DNA of 64,000 nucleotides from an uncultured Oscillospiraceae bacterium (GCA_900539855.1 UQDO01000002.1:7033-71032), one strand, 5' to 3'. Shown: positions 14,571 through 39,253, counted from the stretch's first letter. Made by a program: numbers and translations. Notes: generated by a model not told the origin, from the sequence alone.

Positions 14571-14591
14571 AATAAATCCCGGACCGTTAAA

Positions 14592-14759
14592 TTTTAGTTT
14601 ATAGGCATAAGAAACCGAAAATCAAATTGTGCATTTGTAGGGAACGAGCCTCGAGTGTCGTTCCGCGCGGTTTCATTAGGTTTTAAGGAACGACACTCGA
14701 GGCTCGTTCCCTACGTCTATCAATTAATTATACGAATACCATTCACCTATAAACTAAAA
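14592..14759. repeat. Nested inverted-repeat (MITE/REP-like) element with the family termini TTTTAGTTTATAGG / CCTATAAACTAAAA
   Basis: The outer arms are a perfect 14-bp IR at 14592-14605 and 14746-14759. The inner arms are a perfect 28-bp IR at 14637-14664 and 14687-14714 around a 22-nt loop. Confidence 0.6.
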
Positions 14760-14944
14760 TTTAAACCAATCAGATCAAAAACCGGATGTGTTGTTGCATA
14801 ATGCATTGATCTGCCGGAATACGACATTTTCCATTTCCACCCATCTGACTCTACTCACAGTAGAGTCAGCGTGTAATGTCTATTCATTTTTCTATTGATA
14901 AAAGCGTGGGCTGCGCTATAATAAAGATGTAAGGGGCGGAGGGC

Positions 14945-17832: not shown

Positions 17833-18645
17833 ATGCTTAAGACCGAAATGAGAAACGAAAACTCAATGCACATAGACAAAATGGATACCCTATCGATGGT
17901 AAAACTCATAAACGAGGAAAATAAAAAATCGGTAAACGCCGTCGATGAGGCGCTCCCGGCAATAGCCGCGGTATGTGATGCGGCAGCCGCCAGCCTTGAA
18001 AAGGGCGGAAGGATATTTTATGTCGGTGCCGGAACGTCGGGACGCATAGGAGTAATGGACGCTGCCGAGTGTCCGCCCACCTTCGGTGTGGAAAAGGACA
18101 GGGTTATAGGCATTATCGCCGGCGGCGCAAAATGCATGACTATGGCTGCCGAAGCCGAGGAGGACAATGCAGAAGCCGGCAGAGAGGATATAGCCCGTTA
18201 CGGTCTCAATGAAAAGGATATAGTTATAGGCATTTCGGCGTCGGGCGGTGCGGATTATGTTGTGGGCGCGCTTTTGTACGCCAACAGCGTCGGAGCGTGC
18301 AGCGTCAGTATTTCAAGCAACAGCGACACCCCGATAGAGCATGCCGCAAAGCTCCACATAGTGGTCGACACCGGAGCCGAGGTCATAACCGGTTCAACAA
18401 GAATGAAGAGCGGTACGGCTCAGAAGCTTGTGCTCAATATGATCTCGACCGCAGCCATGGTGAAAACAGGCAAGGTGTATGAAAATCTTATGATAAATCT
18501 AAGACCCGGCAACCGCAAGCTAAAGCTGAGGATGATAGGCATTGTCAGTGAAATAGCCGGAAGTGATGCCGAAAACTCGGAAAAACTGCTTGATGCCAAT
18601 GGCTGGAACATCCGCAAGGCAGTAGAAGAAGAGACGAAAAAATGA
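17833..18645 (+). CDS. murQ: N-acetylmuramic acid 6-phosphate etherase (SIS domain)
   Basis: The protein matches MurQ/SIS at ...LINEENKKSVNAVDEALPAIAAV...GRIFYVGAGTSGRIGVMDAAECPPTFG... and is 270 aa. Confidence 0.75.
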   Translation: MLKTEMRNENSMHIDKMDTLSMVKLINEENKKSVNAVDEALPAIAAVCDAAAASLEKGGRIFYVGAGTSGRIGVMDAAECPPTFGVEKDRVIGIIAGGAKCMTMAAEAEEDNAEAGREDIARYGLNEKDIVIGISASGGADYVVGALLYANSVGACSVSISSNSDTPIEHAAKLHIVVDTGAEVITGSTRMKSGTAQKLVLNMISTAAMVKTGKVYENLMINLRPGNRKLKLRMIGIVSEIAGSDAENSEKLLDANGWNIRKAVEEETKK

Positions 18646-18670
18646 CCTTCGGTCTGACCGGAGGTCATTA
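18639..18670. repeat. 32-bp GC hairpin, left copy of a perfect direct repeat flanking the 234-bp element; probably also the murQ terminator
   Basis: The sequence aaatgaccttcggtctgaccggaggtcattac recurs identically at 18905-18936. On the minus strand the hairpin is followed by TTTTTT. Confidence 0.6.
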
Positions 18671-18904
18671 CAGTCTGTCGATAAACCTCAAAGTCTACTC
18701 TTTCGTCGGTTATACTGCATTTTCTGTTTTTCCGCTGACATGCGCGGCGAAAAAACACCTTGTAAGCGAAAAACCGCAGAATATAGCGGTTTTTCAAGGA
18801 CACTGGGGTGGTATTGGCGGGGATAGAGCGCAGTCCGAAAATCTTTGATTTTCGAGCGAGCGGCATTCCCGTCCAAAAGCGTGTCGAATTTTTCGACACG
18901 CTCA
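18671..18904. repeat. 234-bp structured element, copy 1 (candidate sRNA or miniature mobile element)
   Basis: It differs from 38246-38479 by 3 substitutions in 234 bp. It contains internal hairpins (aaaaccgc-agaatata-gcggtttt, cgaaaatc-ttt-gattttcg, gcgtgtcgaa-ttt-ttcgacacgc). No protein-like ORF is present. Confidence 0.6.
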
Positions 18905-18936
18905 AATGACCTTCGGTCTGACCGGAGGTCATTACT
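18905..18936. repeat. 32-bp GC hairpin, right copy of the direct repeat flanking the 234-bp element
   Basis: It is identical to 18639-18670. Confidence 0.6.
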
Positions 18937-18958: not shown

Positions 18959-19318
18959 CTAATCTTCCACCGGAAGAACAAACCTTGAACAGTAACGTTT
19001 GGTTTCGATTTCACGACCGGTATACGGAGCAACGATGCCAAGTGCCCTCGGCGCGGCGGCAGGCTTTAAACCGTGCGCCTTTGCTTCCCTGCCAAGGGTC
19101 AGGCATGCCTCATCTGCACCGCTGTAATCGCCGCAGTACAGCACCGACAGTACTCCGGCTGTAAGTCCAAAAATCTGCACCGGCTTTAATTTTCCCGCAA
19201 ACAGCATGCGCCCGGCAAAAGCAGTCAAAATATTATTGCCGCGCACAGCGCGATTTAAAAATGTACGGCAAATAAAAATCGATCGGTATAATTCTTCTGA
19301 AATAACAGATAATAGCAT
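18959..19318 (-). CDS. Hypothetical protein; doubtful ORF
   Basis: The 119-aa ORF has no RBS and no recognisable motif. It leaves only 30 nt before the spoVT start. It may be non-coding. Confidence 0.25.
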   Translation of the reverse strand: MLLSVISEELYRSIFICRTFLNRAVRGNNILTAFAGRMLFAGKLKPVQIFGLTAGVLSVLYCGDYSGADEACLTLGREAKAHGLKPAAAPRALGIVAPYTGREIETKRYCSRFVLPVED

Positions 19319-20053: not shown

Positions 20054-20130
20054 TGGCGGTATAGCTCAGTTGGCTAGAGCACTCGGTTCATACCCGATTT
20101 GTCGTTGGTTCAAGTCCAATTACCGCTACC
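20054..20130 (+). tRNA. tRNA-Met (anticodon CAT)
   Basis: The cloverleaf GGCGGTATAGCTCAGTTGGCTAGAGCACTCGGTTCATACCCGA...GGTTCAAGTCCAATTACCGCTACCA is close to Bacillus elongator tRNA-Met. CCA is encoded. Confidence 0.8.
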
Positions 20131-20170: not shown

Positions 20171-20245
20171 CGGCCCGGTGGTCAAGCGGCTAAGACACCG
20201 CCCTTTCACGGCGGTAACACGAGTTCGATTCTCGTCCGGGTCACC
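20171..20245 (+). tRNA. tRNA-Glu (anticodon TTC)
   Basis: The sequence GGCCCGGTGGTCAAGCGGCTAAGACACCGCCCTTTCACGGCGGTAACACGAGTTCGATTCTCGTCCGGGTCACCA is near-identical to the canonical Firmicute tRNA-Glu. Confidence 0.85.
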
Positions 20246-21264: not shown

Positions 21265-21284
21265 GGTGAATTTTAGTTTAGAGG
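21265..21284. repeat. Solo copy of the GGTGAATTTTAGTTTA repeat-family terminus
   Basis: It shares 16 bp with 38170-38185. No partner arm was found nearby. Confidence 0.4.
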
Positions 21285-31204: not shown

Positions 31205-31394
31205 CGTTCCTTAATAAACAGCCTAAAAACCAATTGACACTTTGTAGGGCAAGGGTCCCACTTCTGCCGCCACTTTTACAACAAATCAAGCAATTAATTT
31301 TAGTTTATAGGTGCACAAAAAACAAATGGCTAATTGAATTTTTGTAGGGAACGACCTATGTCTGTCAATATTTCATTACGCAGATAAACTAAAA
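31205..31394. repeat. Degenerate composite copy of the TTTTAGTTTATAGG / TGTAGGGAACGAC inverted-repeat element
   Basis: Family motifs occur in a fixed order. These are gtgtcgttcc at 31211, ttgtagggcaa at 31243, ttttagtttatagg at 31298, tgtagggaacgac at 31333 and ataaactaaaa at 31384. Confidence 0.45.
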
Positions 31395-31473
31395 TTTACC
31401 GACCTGTTATACTGCTGCATTTTAATTGCTCGGGGGATATAAACATCCCCCGGGCAAATTTTGTACGCATTTT

Positions 31474-34143: not shown

Positions 34144-34341
34144 TTACGCTACTTCCGGCAGTCCTGCTATACTTGTAAGCAGTGACAAAACGCCTGCGAG
34201 CAGTGCTGTACTGCCAACGACAAGCCAGTTGATATCACCGAAAGCCGCACTTGTTCCGATGGTTGCTATCGCCGATTGGGCAATAGTTTTCACGGCTCTT
34301 ATTCCTGCAGCCTTGAACCACTTTTTAGTGTTATCCTTCAC
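34144..34341 (-). CDS. Phage holin (small, LL-H / phi-LC3-like family)
   Basis: The 65-aa protein has two predicted TM helices. It sits at the 3' end of the lysis cassette and overlaps the preceding gene by 4 nt. Confidence 0.6.
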   Translation of the reverse strand: MKDNTKKWFKAAGIRAVKTIAQSAIATIGTSAAFGDINWLVVGSTALLAGVLSLLTSIAGLPEVA

Positions 34342-34616
34342 TGTGTGATATACCTCCCTTCATTTCTTTCAACCTCACGCACGCGTCGGTCGAGCGACCT
34401 TATGCGTTCCTCGATCACCGGCAGGTTCTTTGCAGATGCATTAAGTTCCCGTACCTCACGCGTCAGCTCCTCTAATTTTGTGTCCGTTACAGCCTGTGCA
34501 ACGTCGATCCTTCTTTTCATTTCACGGCCGGACCTTCTCCCGGCTATCAATGCGCCGAAAAAGGACAGCAAGCCCACTATGATCGCCGCTGCCGCTGAAA
34601 TCAGTGTCTCAGCCAA
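34338..34616 (-). CDS. Lysis-cassette membrane/coiled-coil protein (XhlA-like by position only)
   Basis: The 92-aa protein has an N-terminal TM helix and a C-terminal coiled coil. It lies between the endolysin and the holin. Confidence 0.45.
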   Translation of the reverse strand: MAETLISAAAAIIVGLLSFFGALIAGRRSGREMKRRIDVAQAVTDTKLEELTREVRELNASAKNLPVIEERIRSLDRRVREVERNEGRYITQ

Positions 34617-34642
34617 TTTAAACGCCTCCGCCTGAAACTAAC

Positions 34643-35395
34643 TCAGCTTATTCCCAGTATTCTTTTCCATGAGTTGAGTCCCACGGCGCCGTCAGCCACA
34701 AGACCGTTTGCAGCCTGCCATTTGATGACCGCTGCACGGGTATCATTGCCGAACTTGCCGTCCGCGGTCACGCCGACTACTTGCTGAACGATAGCAGTAA
34801 GATTTTTGTACCTGTAGCCGACGGCATATTTTTTGCATATCGCCTGCTTCGCGACCGCAGCGCACTCTGCACCCCACGCGCCGTCAGCGCCGTACCTCGG
34901 GAATTTGAAGCCGTCAGCCATCGCCGCTTTCTGCCACTGCTTTACCGATACCGACGACACGGCTGCTACGCCAAAGGTCGAGCGGTATTTCTGATCCTGC
35001 CCGTACCAGAACGACTTTGTCACACGGGTGTCAATGTGAACAAAATAGCCGTCCTTCGCTGTCTCGTAAAGTCCGATACCCTTTGCACCTATGCTTTCTG
35101 CGTACTTCGCAACCTCGGAGGGGCTGACACCTGCGATCATGATGTCAGCCGCCATGCCTGCCTTGTGCTTTGACGCGGTCGCGCCGCCGACCGACCGGTT
35201 GTGCCTTTCGCAGCGGTATCCGCTCGAAATTATGATCGGCTTGCCGAAATGGTCACGGATCTTCTGCAGATATTCCACAAGCTGCATGTCCACAAGCGTT
35301 TCATTGCAGCAGCCCACACCGTGGCAGTCAAACTCAGTTGAACGGAAATTTGCACTGAGTTGTGTCGATACGCCCTTTTTAAACCTCTTTATCAA
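34643..35395 (-). CDS. Phage endolysin: M15-type zinc peptidase plus a C-terminal peptidoglycan-binding domain
   Basis: The zinc motifs SGYRCERHNRSVGG...SKH...D of the Peptidase_M15 family are present. The C-terminal repeat ADGKFGNDTRAAVIKWQAANGLVADGAVG is a PG_binding_1 domain. Confidence 0.8.
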   Translation of the reverse strand: MIKRFKKGVSTQLSANFRSTEFDCHGVGCCNETLVDMQLVEYLQKIRDHFGKPIIISSGYRCERHNRSVGGATASKHKAGMAADIMIAGVSPSEVAKYAESIGAKGIGLYETAKDGYFVHIDTRVTKSFWYGQDQKYRSTFGVAAVSSVSVKQWQKAAMADGFKFPRYGADGAWGAECAAVAKQAICKKYAVGYRYKNLTAIVQQVVGVTADGKFGNDTRAAVIKWQAANGLVADGAVGLNSWKRILGIS

Positions 35396-35567
35396 TGTTA
35401 TCCTCCTCTCCTTTTTCCTTTATTGCCGCCTCAATCTCGGCGAGATCACCCTCGGTGAGGACGCCCTTTTCGAGCCACCCGGCGGCGTTTAAAATTATCT
35501 GGTAGTCAGCCATGCTGCCTGCCGCTTTTATAAGACCTGATTTTATGAAATTTCTTAAATTGAACAT
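35379..35567 (-). CDS. XkdX-family small phage protein
   Basis: The 62-aa protein follows the XkdX-like pattern ...GWLEKGVLTEGDLAEIEAAIKEK. It lies between the tail-fibre and endolysin genes, as in PBSX-like phages. Confidence 0.55.
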   Translation of the reverse strand: MFNLRNFIKSGLIKAAGSMADYQIILNAAGWLEKGVLTEGDLAEIEAAIKEKGEEDNIDKEV

Positions 35568-37708
35568 TATACATTCCCTCCGAGCGATATTATCGCCTGT
35601 TTTAATTCGTCAAACGCTTTGTTTATATCCCTGTTGTATCTGGTGCTGAGCGTACCGGGCGACTTCACGGCAAATGTGCAGACATTCTCCCTTGCGGCGG
35701 TTACATTGCCGTCAGTATCGGGCGTAAGCTCCGCCGGCGCTGCGTATTTTTCATAACCTGCGGCGGCGTCGCTGCACCTGACCTGTATTCTGACCTTGTA
35801 ATTGTCGAAAGCCACGCCGGCATATACATAGATCCATGTTCTCTCAAGAAAATAGCTCCTGTCGCAGGTTTTGGTCTGTGACGTGCTTTCGTTTTTAAGC
35901 GGTGCGGCGTGCAGCTTGTCACCCCAAAGAGCAGCATCGTTTGTGTATCCGGTGTGGAACACGGCATCCCGACCATACTGATTTTGTGTAGTAGTGCCGC
36001 TTACATATTCAACGTCGACTGTAAAATCTTTATTCAGCCCATAATAAAAATTGGGTATTGCGACAGTAAACTGCTGGTTTTCCGACGGAGAAGAACCGTT
36101 AAATAAGAAGCAATCTTCATCCGGCAGATACTGTATTGTAATACCGCCAAAGGTCTGAGCAGTCATCCAAGGAGTCGGGTCAAAAATGTTGCGGCCGAGC
36201 TTATAGACCTTGGAAGGCGCATTATCGCCCACGGCAGCAACATTTACGGTGACCGTGTCCTCGCATGGCGAAACATCGTCTATCCCCAGCATGCTTCCCG
36301 ATTTTTGTGACACCAGCGCGTTTGCTCTTTCACCGAGACAGGAGCTAATGTCCCTGTTGTAGGTCACGCTGACGGTGCCGGCAGACACCGAGACGGTCAT
36401 GGGCGACGCGGTGGAATTAAGCCCCGTGACCGTGCCGTCGGCAGAAGCAGAGCCTGTAGATACCGTGCCGTCCGGCGCCGTGACCGTAACGGCGGTGGGT
36501 ATAGCCTGTACGGTACTGACGGTCAGAGTGCAGGTCTCGGTCACAAGATCGCTTTGCAGTATACCATTTACCGCAAATCCTGTGATCTTTGAACCGGCAG
36601 CTACGGTCGTACTTACCGTAACATCGTCATTTATGGCACCATAGCAGCCCTTTTTGCCGGTAACCGTAAGTGTCGTCCCGTCTATTACATAATCCAGGAC
36701 GCTGAAGCATGACGTTTCGGCATTTGCTGATGTTGTCACTGCCGCATCAGTGACCTGTTCGCCGTCCACTACAGGCACAAGTACGGACGGACTGCTTGAA
36801 GGTATAGTGCCCTCTACACCGGATTTGCGCTCAATGTACCCCTGCAAAACAACATGAACGTTTTCATCCGGCTGTTCAAGTGTTATGCTGCCTGCACTTG
36901 TAAGAGCATTTTTAGATACCTCGACAAGTCCCGTGCCTGATGTCAGCACCGAGCACTTTACCTTTAACTCATGCTTTAAGGGCGATACATCATTTACCGT
37001 AAATGATGTTCCACCAACCGTGTTTTTAACCGGGTTGCAAAGCTCGTTCGGCAAACTTACCAGAGTTTCAAGCTTCTGCACCGCGCTCTTGGCAATTTCA
37101 GCCTGCGCTTTCGCCTCATCGGCTTTACTTTCTGCCGATCTGCTGCAGTTGAAAGCCATGTTGCTGCTGAGTTCGCAGGCGGTTTTTATTCCGGCTGCCG
37201 TCTCGCTGTCGGTCTTGGCATTATCAGCACTCAGTTTGGCATCGGCTGCGAGGGCGGCGGCTGACTCTGCGCTTGCCTTTGCCTCATCAATGCGCTTGTC
37301 GCAAAGCAGCATCATACTTTCGAAATTGTCCGAAGATCTCTCGATTTCTGCAAACGGTGTTTCTGAAACGCCGACATTCAGCGGCAGCACCGAGCTCTTG
37401 CATATCTGCACTGCTTCGCCGTCCGACTCCTTATATCCGGCAAGCTGGAAATGTATCACCGGCGCGTTCATTGCCTCAAAGGGCACCGTATATTCGATAA
37501 TTCCATCGCTAATATAAAGCTTTTCACTGTAATGACCGTCAATTATCACTCTATAATATTCGGAATTGCCGAAATGTGTCCCGGATATATCGTCAATGCT
37601 TATGCGGAGCAGAACGGCATTGTGTTCTCCTCCGTAACCTATTGTTCTGTCGGGCTCACTCAACCACGCTTTTCCGTCATCATAGAATTTGATTGTGGTA
37701 TAACGCAT
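35567..37708 (-). CDS. Phage tail fibre / host-specificity protein (BppU-like N-terminus, coiled coil, Ser/Thr/Val-rich beta region)
   Basis: The 713-aa protein has an Ala/Lys-rich coiled coil over about residues 140-210. A long T/S/V-rich region follows. It is the first gene of the phage remnant on this strand. Confidence 0.6.
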   Translation of the reverse strand: MRYTTIKFYDDGKAWLSEPDRTIGYGGEHNAVLLRISIDDISGTHFGNSEYYRVIIDGHYSEKLYISDGIIEYTVPFEAMNAPVIHFQLAGYKESDGEAVQICKSSVLPLNVGVSETPFAEIERSSDNFESMMLLCDKRIDEAKASAESAAALAADAKLSADNAKTDSETAAGIKTACELSSNMAFNCSRSAESKADEAKAQAEIAKSAVQKLETLVSLPNELCNPVKNTVGGTSFTVNDVSPLKHELKVKCSVLTSGTGLVEVSKNALTSAGSITLEQPDENVHVVLQGYIERKSGVEGTIPSSSPSVLVPVVDGEQVTDAAVTTSANAETSCFSVLDYVIDGTTLTVTGKKGCYGAINDDVTVSTTVAAGSKITGFAVNGILQSDLVTETCTLTVSTVQAIPTAVTVTAPDGTVSTGSASADGTVTGLNSTASPMTVSVSAGTVSVTYNRDISSCLGERANALVSQKSGSMLGIDDVSPCEDTVTVNVAAVGDNAPSKVYKLGRNIFDPTPWMTAQTFGGITIQYLPDEDCFLFNGSSPSENQQFTVAIPNFYYGLNKDFTVDVEYVSGTTTQNQYGRDAVFHTGYTNDAALWGDKLHAAPLKNESTSQTKTCDRSYFLERTWIYVYAGVAFDNYKVRIQVRCSDAAAGYEKYAAPAELTPDTDGNVTAARENVCTFAVKSPGTLSTRYNRDINKAFDELKQAIISLGGNV

Positions 37709-38167: not shown

Positions 38168-38209
38168 TGGTGAATTTTAGTTTATCTGCATAAAGGTAAA
38201 CTAAAATTT
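38168..38209. repeat. Minimal hairpin copy of the TTTTAGTTTA inverted-repeat family
   Basis: ggtgaattttagtttat-ctgcataaagg-taaactaaaattt has 13-bp arms. Confidence 0.5.
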
Positions 38210-38217
38210 ATAATTAA

Positions 38218-38246
38218 AGACCGGCAGGAATGTCCCTGCCGGTCCC
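38218..38246. repeat. GC hairpin of the gaccggcagg family, left flank of 234-bp element copy 2
   Basis: gaccggcaggaatgtccctgccggtc is near-identical to 21209-21238. Confidence 0.45.
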
Positions 38247-38479
38247 AGTCTGTCGATAAACCTCAAAGTCTACTCTTTCGTCGGTTATGCTGCATTTTCT
38301 GTTTTTCCGCTGACATGCGCGGCGGAAAAACACCTTGTAAGCGAAAAACCGCAGAATATAGCGGTTTTTCAAGGACACTGGGGTGGTATTGGCGGGGATA
38401 GAGCGCAGTCCGAAAATCTTTGATTTTCGAGCGAGCGGCATTCCCGTCCAAAAGCGTGTCGACTTTTTCGACACGCTCA
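38246..38479. repeat. 234-bp structured element, copy 2
   Basis: It matches 18671-18904 with 3 mismatches in 234 bp. Confidence 0.6.
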
Positions 38480-38505
38480 GACCGCAGTTCCCTGCGGTCT
38501 TTTTC
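38480..38505 (+). terminator. Rho-independent terminator abutting the 3' end (plus sense) of element copy 2
   Basis: The hairpin gaccgcag-ttcc-ctgcggtc is followed by TTTTTC. Confidence 0.5.
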
Positions 38506-38515
38506 TGTAAAAAAA

Positions 38516-39253
38516 TTATTGCACACTCTTTCCGCCGTCTACGAAAATGCACTGGCCGGTCATATACCTGCCCTCGTCAGAGCAGAGGAGCGACACTATC
38601 CCTGCACAGTCGTCAGGCTTTCCGTAAAAGCCTACCGGTATAGAGGCTATTACCTTCGCGGCATACTGGGGATCAGACAAAGCCTCAACGTTCCGGTCAG
38701 TATAAATAACGCCCGGCGCTACATTGTTTACCGTTATTCCGAACGGCGCCAGCTGAAGTGACAGCGATCTCACCATATTGGTCTGTGCCGCCTTTGCGGC
38801 AGAGTAAATGAGCATGTCGGGATGCGGTTTTGCCTCCTGAACACTGCCTATTGTGACTATCCTGCCCCACTTTTGCTCCTTCATATGGGGGACTACTGCT
38901 TTTATCAGCATCAGCGACGATACAAAATCACAGTTGAGCTGATCGTACACCTCACCCAGCTCTATTTCATCCCAATGCTTTCTTATCTGCAGTGACGCAT
39001 TGAGCACCAATGCGTCTATATCCCCTGCATTTGACGCTAAAAGCGCCGTTTCCGACGTTTTGCAGAGGTCAGCTCTGATAACGCTTGCCCTGCCGCCGTT
39101 TTCTTCTATCAGACGTCTTGTCTCATCAGCTTTATCGGTATTTCCGGCGCAGTGAACTATCACCTCATAGCCGTCCTTTGCAAGGCGTATTGCTATTGCT
39201 CTGCCTATACCGCGGGACGAACCCGTTACAAGCACGCGTTTTCCGTTCGACAA
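38516..39253 (-). CDS. SDR family oxidoreductase (3-oxoacyl-ACP reductase-like)
   Basis: The TGSSRGIGRA Rossmann motif and a YxxxK catalytic motif are present. The protein is 245 aa. Confidence 0.8.
   Translation of the reverse strand: MSNGKRVLVTGSSRGIGRAIAIRLAKDGYEVIVHCAGNTDKADETRRLIEENGGRASVIRADLCKTSETALLASNAGDIDALVLNASLQIRKHWDEIELGEVYDQLNCDFVSSLMLIKAVVPHMKEQKWGRIVTIGSVQEAKPHPDMLIYSAAKAAQTNMVRSLSLQLAPFGITVNNVAPGVIYTDRNVEALSDPQYAAKVIASIPVGFYGKPDDCAGIVSLLCSDEGRYMTGQCIFVDGGKSVQ

Follow-up and report, generated by a model that had tools for sequence, protein, structure and literature searches.

What kind of object is a sequence of some 230 nucleotides that occurs twice within a single piece of bacterial DNA, each time between hairpins? 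The pair lies in a window (the whole stretch of DNA analysed, 64,000 nucleotides from an uncultured Oscillospiraceae bacterium) at positions 18671–18904 and 38246–38479. An earlier note on this DNA had offered two identities, either an unnamed sRNA in its own small transcription unit or a miniature non-autonomous mobile element. The second is strongly supported by terminal inverted repeats (TIRs), target duplications, numerous unrelated loci across several genomes and four sites that are seen both filled and empty, and we conclude that the repeat is very probably a non-autonomous transposable element (MITE) that is spreading in a gut Oscillospiraceae/Clostridia lineage. The sections below deal with the boundaries of the element, the targets it chooses, the enzyme that might move it and the hairpins that it carries inside.

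The element and its copies

The 234-nt stretches align without gaps at 98.7% identity, as the note had reported, with the three mismatches in 234 falling at element positions 44, 80 and 218, and a profile built from the family and run over the whole 64-kb window found no third copy. Nor does the element contain a protein-like ORF: the ORFs that overlap it begin in the flanks, and family members vary by indels of 1–2 nt. While the identity does extend over 234 nt, the true element is one base shorter. The base after ...CACGCTC follows the target in L005, L006 and L042, so that the final A lies outside the element and within the target duplication, leaving an element of 233 bp at 18671–18903 (copy 1) and 38246–38478 (copy 2), both on the plus strand.

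On the plus strand copy 1 runs from CAGTCTGTCGATAAA to TTTTTCGACACGCTC. The left TIR, CAGTCTGTCGATAAA (18671–18685, plus strand), and the right TIR, which reads GAGCGTGTCGAAAAA on the minus strand (18889–18903) and provides the 3′ arm of a terminal hairpin, lie at the exact termini but are imperfect, with 11 of 15 positions agreeing in register. Conservation within the family is highest over the first 21 bp; among clade representatives the invariant fraction of columns is 0.90 at this terminus (columns 1–21) and 0.83 at the other.

The genomes of 185,579 species were scanned with an exact left-end 20-mer, which gave 11 loci in five MAGs (uncultured Clostridia, Eubacteriales, Oscillospiraceae or Ruminococcaceae), one of which (BRZ_F bin41) carries at least six copies of the element. 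The same 20-mer identified 31 loci in metagenome contigs, mostly human-gut assemblies, and more copies were added through look-ups of neighbouring proteins. Beyond the window this amounts to ~40 copies, 77–100% identical, from Oscillospiraceae/Clostridia MAGs and human-gut contigs, in which full-length copies are 94–100% identical within the species of the window and 77–90% identical in other genomes. The count of copies and flanks in relatives that the note had proposed as a check thus gives many copies, with flanks that differ from locus to locus. Searches of PLSDB and INPHARED by blastn in a distant mode, made with a plasmid or phage origin in mind, returned no match to the element. Two loci, L016 and L039, were discarded as chance 20-mer matches in unrelated organisms; their contigs end in telomere-like repeats (GGGGTTTT and ACTTTAC arrays).

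Size variants of the element are also present. These include an internally deleted derivative of 67 bp (L014), left-end fragments (L008 and the group L015/L033/L035/L036) and an enlarged derivative of 340 bp with a 106-bp internal insert (L003, 4220–4559). The L003 variant suggests that the 233-bp forms may be deletion derivatives of a longer ancestor. In L003 the sequence right after the insert (CGGGTACCGCAAGAGTAGGGAG) stands where L005 has the usual GGTATTGGCGGGGATAGAG core.

Target choice and duplication

The duplications were tabulated for 16 sites at which both flanks are native. Direct repeats with zero or one mismatch border the element at all 16, measuring 22–32 bp at all but one, where the length is 8 bp. 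In 15 of the 16 cases the duplication coincides with a palindrome of 8–14 pairs, its edges lying 0–2 nt from the base of the stem, and the sequences of the target stems are unrelated between sites. The duplicated unit is the whole pre-existing stem-loop plus 0–2 nt per side, symmetric about the dyad of the hairpin, and its length follows the length of the hairpin over a 10-bp range. The exceptional site is L011, whose target has no hairpin and whose 8-bp repeat is AATTATAC. Insertions are found 14–180 bp past the 3′ ends of genes, frequently between convergent gene pairs, and many of the targets can be recognised as intrinsic terminators from the A-run before and the T-run after the hairpin. 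In the species of the window alone, at least nine sites have intact duplications.

Copy 1 provides an example. The 31-bp sequence AAATGACCTTCGGTCTGACCGGAGGTCATTA at 18640–18670 is repeated without change at 18904–18934. A SIS-domain MurQ-like gene (17833–18645) ends in the hairpin at 18640–18670, which overlaps its stop codon, has its T-run on the minus strand and lies downstream of a convergent minus-strand ORF (18959–19318). Insertion at this murQ site, with a perfect duplication, is also seen in 8 of 10 other contigs. The flanks of the two copies in the window had been described as unrelated, which is not simply so, as copy 1 lies between identical copies of one 31-bp hairpin and copy 2 between the hairpins of two different terminators.

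Four sites could be compared in their filled and empty states. The first is filled in L032, between two copies of AGCAGCCGCCGGAAATCCGGCGGCTGCTT (29–30 bp), and empty in L012, where there is a single copy; conversely, a second is filled in L012 between two copies of CGGCAGGAACAAAGTCCTGCCGT (23–24 bp) and is empty, again with a single copy, in L032. The third is filled in L036 and empty in L033 (about 25 bp). The fourth, the terminator of a dehydrogenase gene, is filled in L034, L029, L066 and the window and empty in nine contigs, all of which encode a 245-aa short-chain dehydrogenase identical to that of the window and have the single hairpin GACCGCAGGGAACTGCGGTC. In eight of these nine the start of a thioesterase gene follows the hairpin, while the sequence of the other, L071, ends before that point. 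The dehydrogenase terminator has been hit in opposite orientations in L034 (2081–2314) and L029 (1141–1374), each time with a perfect 22-bp duplication, either because a hot spot was hit independently more than once or because the element flipped between its palindromic duplications.

Because the hairpins occur as a single copy at empty sites, those that flank the element are host terminators duplicated by insertion and are not signals of its own. The proposal that GC hairpins box in each copy as a separate transcription unit is therefore not supported, the hairpins pre-dating the insertion and being present once in every empty site. The element is short, has no conserved ORF, bears TIRs, is bordered by target duplications and occupies many loci with presence/absence polymorphism, and in its structure it is a MITE in every respect apart from a demonstrated autonomous partner. 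Against this identity stand the failure to find such a partner, the imperfection of the TIRs and a conservation and covariation of internal hairpins that is unusual for a purely parasitic MITE.

Copy 2 and chimeric junctions

The two hairpins that flank copy 2 are similar but not identical. The left one, AGACCGGCAGGAATGTCCCTGCCGGTCC (38218–38245, 28 bp), belongs to what we call site X, the terminator upstream of a gene for a 713-aa protein, and represents the left half of an insertion at that site; in L078 the element lies at site X with the identical 28-bp sequence on both sides, and a different dehydrogenase gene and gidA are found beyond it. The right one, AGACCGCAGTTCCCTGCGGTCT (38479–38500), is the terminator of the gene for the 245-aa short-chain dehydrogenase (38516–39253, minus strand) and is the right half of the insertion that L034 carries with its perfect 22-bp duplication. 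The flanks of copy 2 come from two different insertion sites and, as far as they can be read, copy 2 is a junction that joins the left half of the site-X insertion to the right half of the insertion at the dehydrogenase terminator. The alternative that its hairpins are a decayed duplication was rejected, as both parental insertions were found with perfect duplications (L078 and L034). The junction itself (38218–38500) was not found in the other contigs retrieved, and its origin is either homologous recombination between copies or a join made in assembly across the 233-bp repeat. It is possible that the two sides of the window around copy 2 are not contiguous in the real genome, or that they come from a strain with a MITE-mediated rearrangement.

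Mixed flanks of the same kind occur in L009, L013, L017, L022, L030, L031, L056 and L058. The flank switches across the element in L056, L058 (from about 4072 onward), L013, L017, L022 and L031, which are MEGAHIT/metaSPAdes-type assemblies, and the murQ left flank, for instance, occurs with three different right flanks. A repeat of 233 bp exceeds the k-mer of the assembler and will probably have produced chimeric joins in these metagenomes.

The segment at 34276–37708 resembles a prophage remnant, its annotation being taken from the identical region of L078. It includes the 713-aa protein, which has no Pfam match (35567–37708, minus strand), with a small r1t-type holin gene nearby, and a Peptidase_M15/PG_binding endolysin-like gene (34643–35395).

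A second MITE-like family is also present in the window, with perfect 18-bp TIRs (TAAATTTTAGTTTATAGG / CCTATAAACTAAAATTTA). The family is represented by a form of about 174 bp (14589–14762), another of about 101 bp (31296–31396), a minimal 36-bp form directly to the left of copy 2 (38173–38208) and a solo end (21269–21280), and its ends also adjoin sites of the 233-bp element in the left flanks of L012, L025 and L042. The 174-bp copy contains a perfect 28-nt inverted repeat (GTAGGGAACGAGCCTCGAGTGTCGTTCC), with arms at 14637–14664 and 14687–14714 that are 22 nt apart.

The mobilising enzyme

The TIRs, the target duplications and the ordinary 8-bp duplication at the site without a hairpin all point to a transposase, and in all likelihood some enzyme of this kind, acting in trans, moves the element. 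As the duplication tracks the length of the stem-loop and is symmetric about its dyad, the cuts appear to fall where the structure dictates, at the foot of the stem on each strand, and not at a fixed spacing. In the route that we propose, a transposase supplied in trans would bind the conserved ends of the element and would recognise its target by shape, as an extruded cruciform or hairpin, instead of by sequence. At the 5′ feet of the stem, the 3′ ends of the element would then be joined to the two strands, and gap repair would copy the entire stem-loop to both sides. Such a route would correspond to ‘pathway b’ of the model for structure-dependent transposition of IS1272, in which it is a hypothetical branch.

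Members of the IS1182 family are listed in ISfinder with direct repeats of 0–60 bp. Within this family, IS1272 and TnSha1 of Staphylococcus target terminator hairpins of 21–85 bp that have no sequence consensus, and hit the same terminator repeatedly and in both orientations (PMC4923244, PMC5678879). IS1272 takes out some or all of the stem-loop and no duplication results, but its model includes an alternative branch where attack at the 5′ feet of the stem leads to the entire stem-loop being duplicated (PMC4923244, PMC5678879). Since whole-stem-loop duplication matches this ‘pathway b’, an IS1182-type DDE transposase is the leading candidate for the mobilising enzyme, although the assignment is drawn from behaviour and we hold it only tentatively. 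The element shares with the family its choice of hairpins without a sequence consensus, seen at 15 of the 16 sites. It differs in that IS1272 is autonomous, about 1.9 kb long and encodes a 548-aa transposase, whereas the element has 233 bp and no gene, and in that IS1272, the characterised relative that targets hairpins, deletes the stem-loop that the element duplicates at hairpin sites.

The ends of the element were compared with those of four members of the family, ISKpn6, ISClbu1, IS1182 and ISSau3. Among the members examined, none has inverted repeats recognisably like those of the element: the likeness is confined to a short tip, AGTCTG/AGCCTG in ISKpn6 and GGCTG in ISClbu1 and IS1182, and no wider or internal similarity was found. 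The terminal repeats of ISClbu1 are built into terminal hairpins, as is the right end of the element. The four transposases gave no tblastn match in the 64-kb window or in related loci totalling about 0.5 Mb, and there is no transposase among the 25 of 107 families listed from a Pfam scan of the window, which are mostly those of housekeeping genes. The one ISAs1-family end examined, probably from a truncated copy of ISKpn31, is unlike the element.

An autonomous partner was not found by left-end scans of the 185,579 species genomes, metagenomes and viral contigs, scans that recover exact matches only, in MAGs that often lack IS copies. The matches were short non-coding copies of the element or chance matches; in viral contigs, 6 chance matches to a 17-mer and 85 to a 15-mer were obtained, and none of the 85 has an inverted end within 3.5 kb. 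L007 was considered as a full-length element and rejected, since its extension to 17.6 kb shows a solo 21-bp end with ordinary genes after it, and neither a transposase nor a right end. Relatives of the regulator that neighbours L007 (P0001, P0002) were uninformative.

An enzyme that reads shape alone is an improbable alternative to an IS1182-type transposase. This integrase, either a hitherto unrecognised hairpin-targeting branch of the DDE enzymes or a Cas1-like protein, would cleave any extruded terminator stem at its foot, irrespective of stem length, and the covarying internal hairpins of the element would possibly be parts of the system; they could be two-way terminators that make insertions harmless, or an RNA or DNA cofactor of transposition. 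If true, this would be a natural, programmable-by-shape, terminator-seeking insertion system without a described counterpart.

Cas1-Cas2 integrates spacers by staggered attacks, one at either border of a palindromic repeat, with the result that the repeat is duplicated. The duplication of a whole 22–32-bp palindrome mirrors this process, and together with the failure to find an IS1182-type partner or a matching inverted repeat it favours a structure-specific integrase other than an IS1182-type DDE enzyme, whether Cas1-like (a casposase or Cas1-Cas2) or undescribed. Casposons, too, are reported to duplicate their target on insertion (PMC5137440). We nevertheless regard such an integrase as very unlikely. 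What CRISPR arrays and casposons have in common with the element is a segment of DNA between two copies of a palindrome of ~20–35 bp, and this is an analogy of outcome only, for integration by Cas1 needs a Cas1-family integrase plus a leader or specific target, while the element has transposon-like TIRs. Defined TIRs and an 8-bp duplication at a site without a hairpin are the ordinary behaviour of DDE enzymes, and the choice of hairpins is already documented for the IS1182 family. No Cas1 or other integrase was seen beside any copy, and neither cas genes nor a casposase were seen near the copies.

Internal hairpins and the case for an RNA

The three stem-loops listed in the earlier note are all found in the element, and there is a fourth (GTTTTTCCGCTGAC..GCGGCGAAAAAAC) together with one that is nested. 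The hairpin GTTTTTCCGCTGAC-ATGC-GCGGCGAAAAAAC (18726–18756, plus strand, columns 57–87) has 13 pairs, two of them with compensatory changes, and 99.3% of its alignment cells are paired. The hairpin GAAAAACCGC-AGAATATA-GCGGTTTTTC (18768–18795) has 10 pairs and a GC core between A5 and T5; three of its pairs are compensatory, with A-U changing to G-C or C-G, and CCGC/GCGG to TAGC/GCTA in L011. The nested module GGGGAT..GC..GTCCGAAAATC-TTT-GATTTTCGAGC..GC..ATTCCC (18819–18870, plus strand) is strongly conserved across clades. The right-terminal hairpin AGCGTGTCGA-ATTTT-TCGACACGCT (18878–18902) has 10 pairs, one of which has changed from C-G to A-U in six sequences; on the minus strand it is followed by TTTT in the clade of the window, and its loop is inverted in L003.

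These hairpins offer the best case for a multi-copy structured sRNA gene or cis-acting RNA that is kept by purifying selection and whose transcription unit is delimited by the flanking hairpins. Compared with shuffled sequences the element folds stably on both strands (minimum free energy of −83.9 kcal/mol and z = −4.8 on the plus strand, −77.8 kcal/mol and z = −4.6 on the minus strand). Across 21 distinct copies the five local hairpins (51 pairs) are 98.7% paired, with compensatory, two-sided changes at eight pairs; these values are matched by none of 500 shuffles, and sliding the partners abolishes the signal. A count from the pair tables gives G.U wobbles in 64 alignment cells on the plus strand and 6 on the minus strand. 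Two internal modules, with 0.77 and 0.74 of their columns invariant among clade representatives (the latter being columns 155–207), are conserved nearly as well as the ends.

An RNA of this description is nevertheless a most unlikely primary identity for the element. The hairpins that would delimit it differ at every locus and pre-exist at empty sites, and presence/absence polymorphism, truncated copies and TIRs are properties of mobile DNA. The covariation statistics overstate independence, because the compensatory changes go back to few independent events in three or four clades, and template-switch repair can also keep palindromes complementary. No sigma-70-like promoter was found within or beside either copy, and where transcription enters from one side only the element lies antisense in seven cases and sense in three, a difference that is not significant. 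The note had seen no likeness to the consensus motifs of several known RNAs, and in a search of Rfam 15 the element has no match at gathering thresholds; at E ≤ 10, copy 1 gives chance-level hits only (14–19 bits against thresholds of 40–80, with E > 1). At gathering thresholds the whole window yields nothing but two tRNA genes, which lie 1.1 kb to the right of copy 1, at 20055–20128 and 20172–20243.

What, then, might the internal hairpins of a MITE do? The hairpin GAAAAACCGC...GCGGTTTTTC retains its A-run and T-run arms across all clades, and with its A5-stem-T5 arrangement it looks like a two-way intrinsic terminator that could act on either strand. When the element inserts, the target hairpin is cut off from its T-run on one side; a terminator carried within the element would therefore lessen the damage done by read-through. 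The conserved internal hairpins might accordingly be the element's own terminators and keep its insertions nearly neutral, an idea suggested by sequence features which we consider possible but rather doubtful. Given the conserved hairpins and their compensatory changes, RNA or single-stranded DNA of the element may have a role, and a function as RNA could be an addition to its identity as a MITE and not a replacement for mobility.

Relation to known elements

A site-specific recombination cassette with the hairpins as its recombination sites, similar to integron attC or attL/attR, is suggested by the position of copy 1 between identical 31-bp imperfect palindromes, direct repeats of ~30 bp being typical of integrase core sites, but it can hardly be correct, as the flanking hairpins differ in sequence and length at each site and stand once in empty alleles, and so belong to the target, while the element ends and targets have no conserved core in common and no recombinase lies nearby.

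The target duplications of classical MITEs are short and fixed, at 2–9 bp, and their fold usually results from end-to-end pairing. The element differs from them in its duplications, which are 22–32 bp and depend on a hairpin, and in its fold, which is a string of covarying local hairpins. In other respects it is similar: classical bacterial MITEs such as Correia/NEMIS, RUP, MITEAba12 and Chunjie are small, non-coding, multi-copy and mostly intergenic, with TIRs and target duplications, and like the element they have a stable fold, size variants and truncated copies (PMC10969869). SPRITE is described, in the same review and in a second source, as a small interspersed intergenic repeat with a terminator-like hairpin (PMC10969869; PMC3049150). 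That hairpin is part of the repeat, whereas the terminators that flank the element are owned by the host and duplicated by insertion, and there is no sequence relationship between the two.

REP/REPIN and IS200/IS605-derived elements resemble the element as short, palindromic, hairpin-centred extragenic repeats at the 3′ ends of genes. They are themselves the palindromes, have neither TIRs nor a target duplication and insert beside a fixed tetra- or pentanucleotide. For the element, by contrast, palindromes of unrelated sequence are the targets, and TIRs and long duplications are present; an identity of the IS200/IS605 or REP type is ruled out by these inverted repeats, the long duplications and the absence of a common target sequence.

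A MITE that duplicates terminators was not found in the literature searched, which included a 2024 review of MITEs. The element is distinct from described bacterial MITEs in its long, variable, structure-defined duplication of terminators and its conserved string of internal hairpins.

Implications

Duplication of a whole stem-loop had previously been drawn only as a hypothetical branch of the IS1272 model, and the insertions described here form a natural data set of 16 independent sites, four with empty alleles, whose targets were apparently selected by structure. If the enzyme is identified, the system would provide a direct test of cruciform or hairpin extrusion at terminators in vivo, and of the measurement of a stem by a transposase. 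For annotation the family carries a caution, in that folding energy and flanking hairpins are insufficient grounds for calling such repeats sRNAs. The element accounts for rearrangements at the strain level in gut Oscillospiraceae, and for contigs that are broken or chimeric in their assemblies. Its insertions also double terminators at the ends of genes, and in this way may alter 3′-UTRs and transcriptional read-through.
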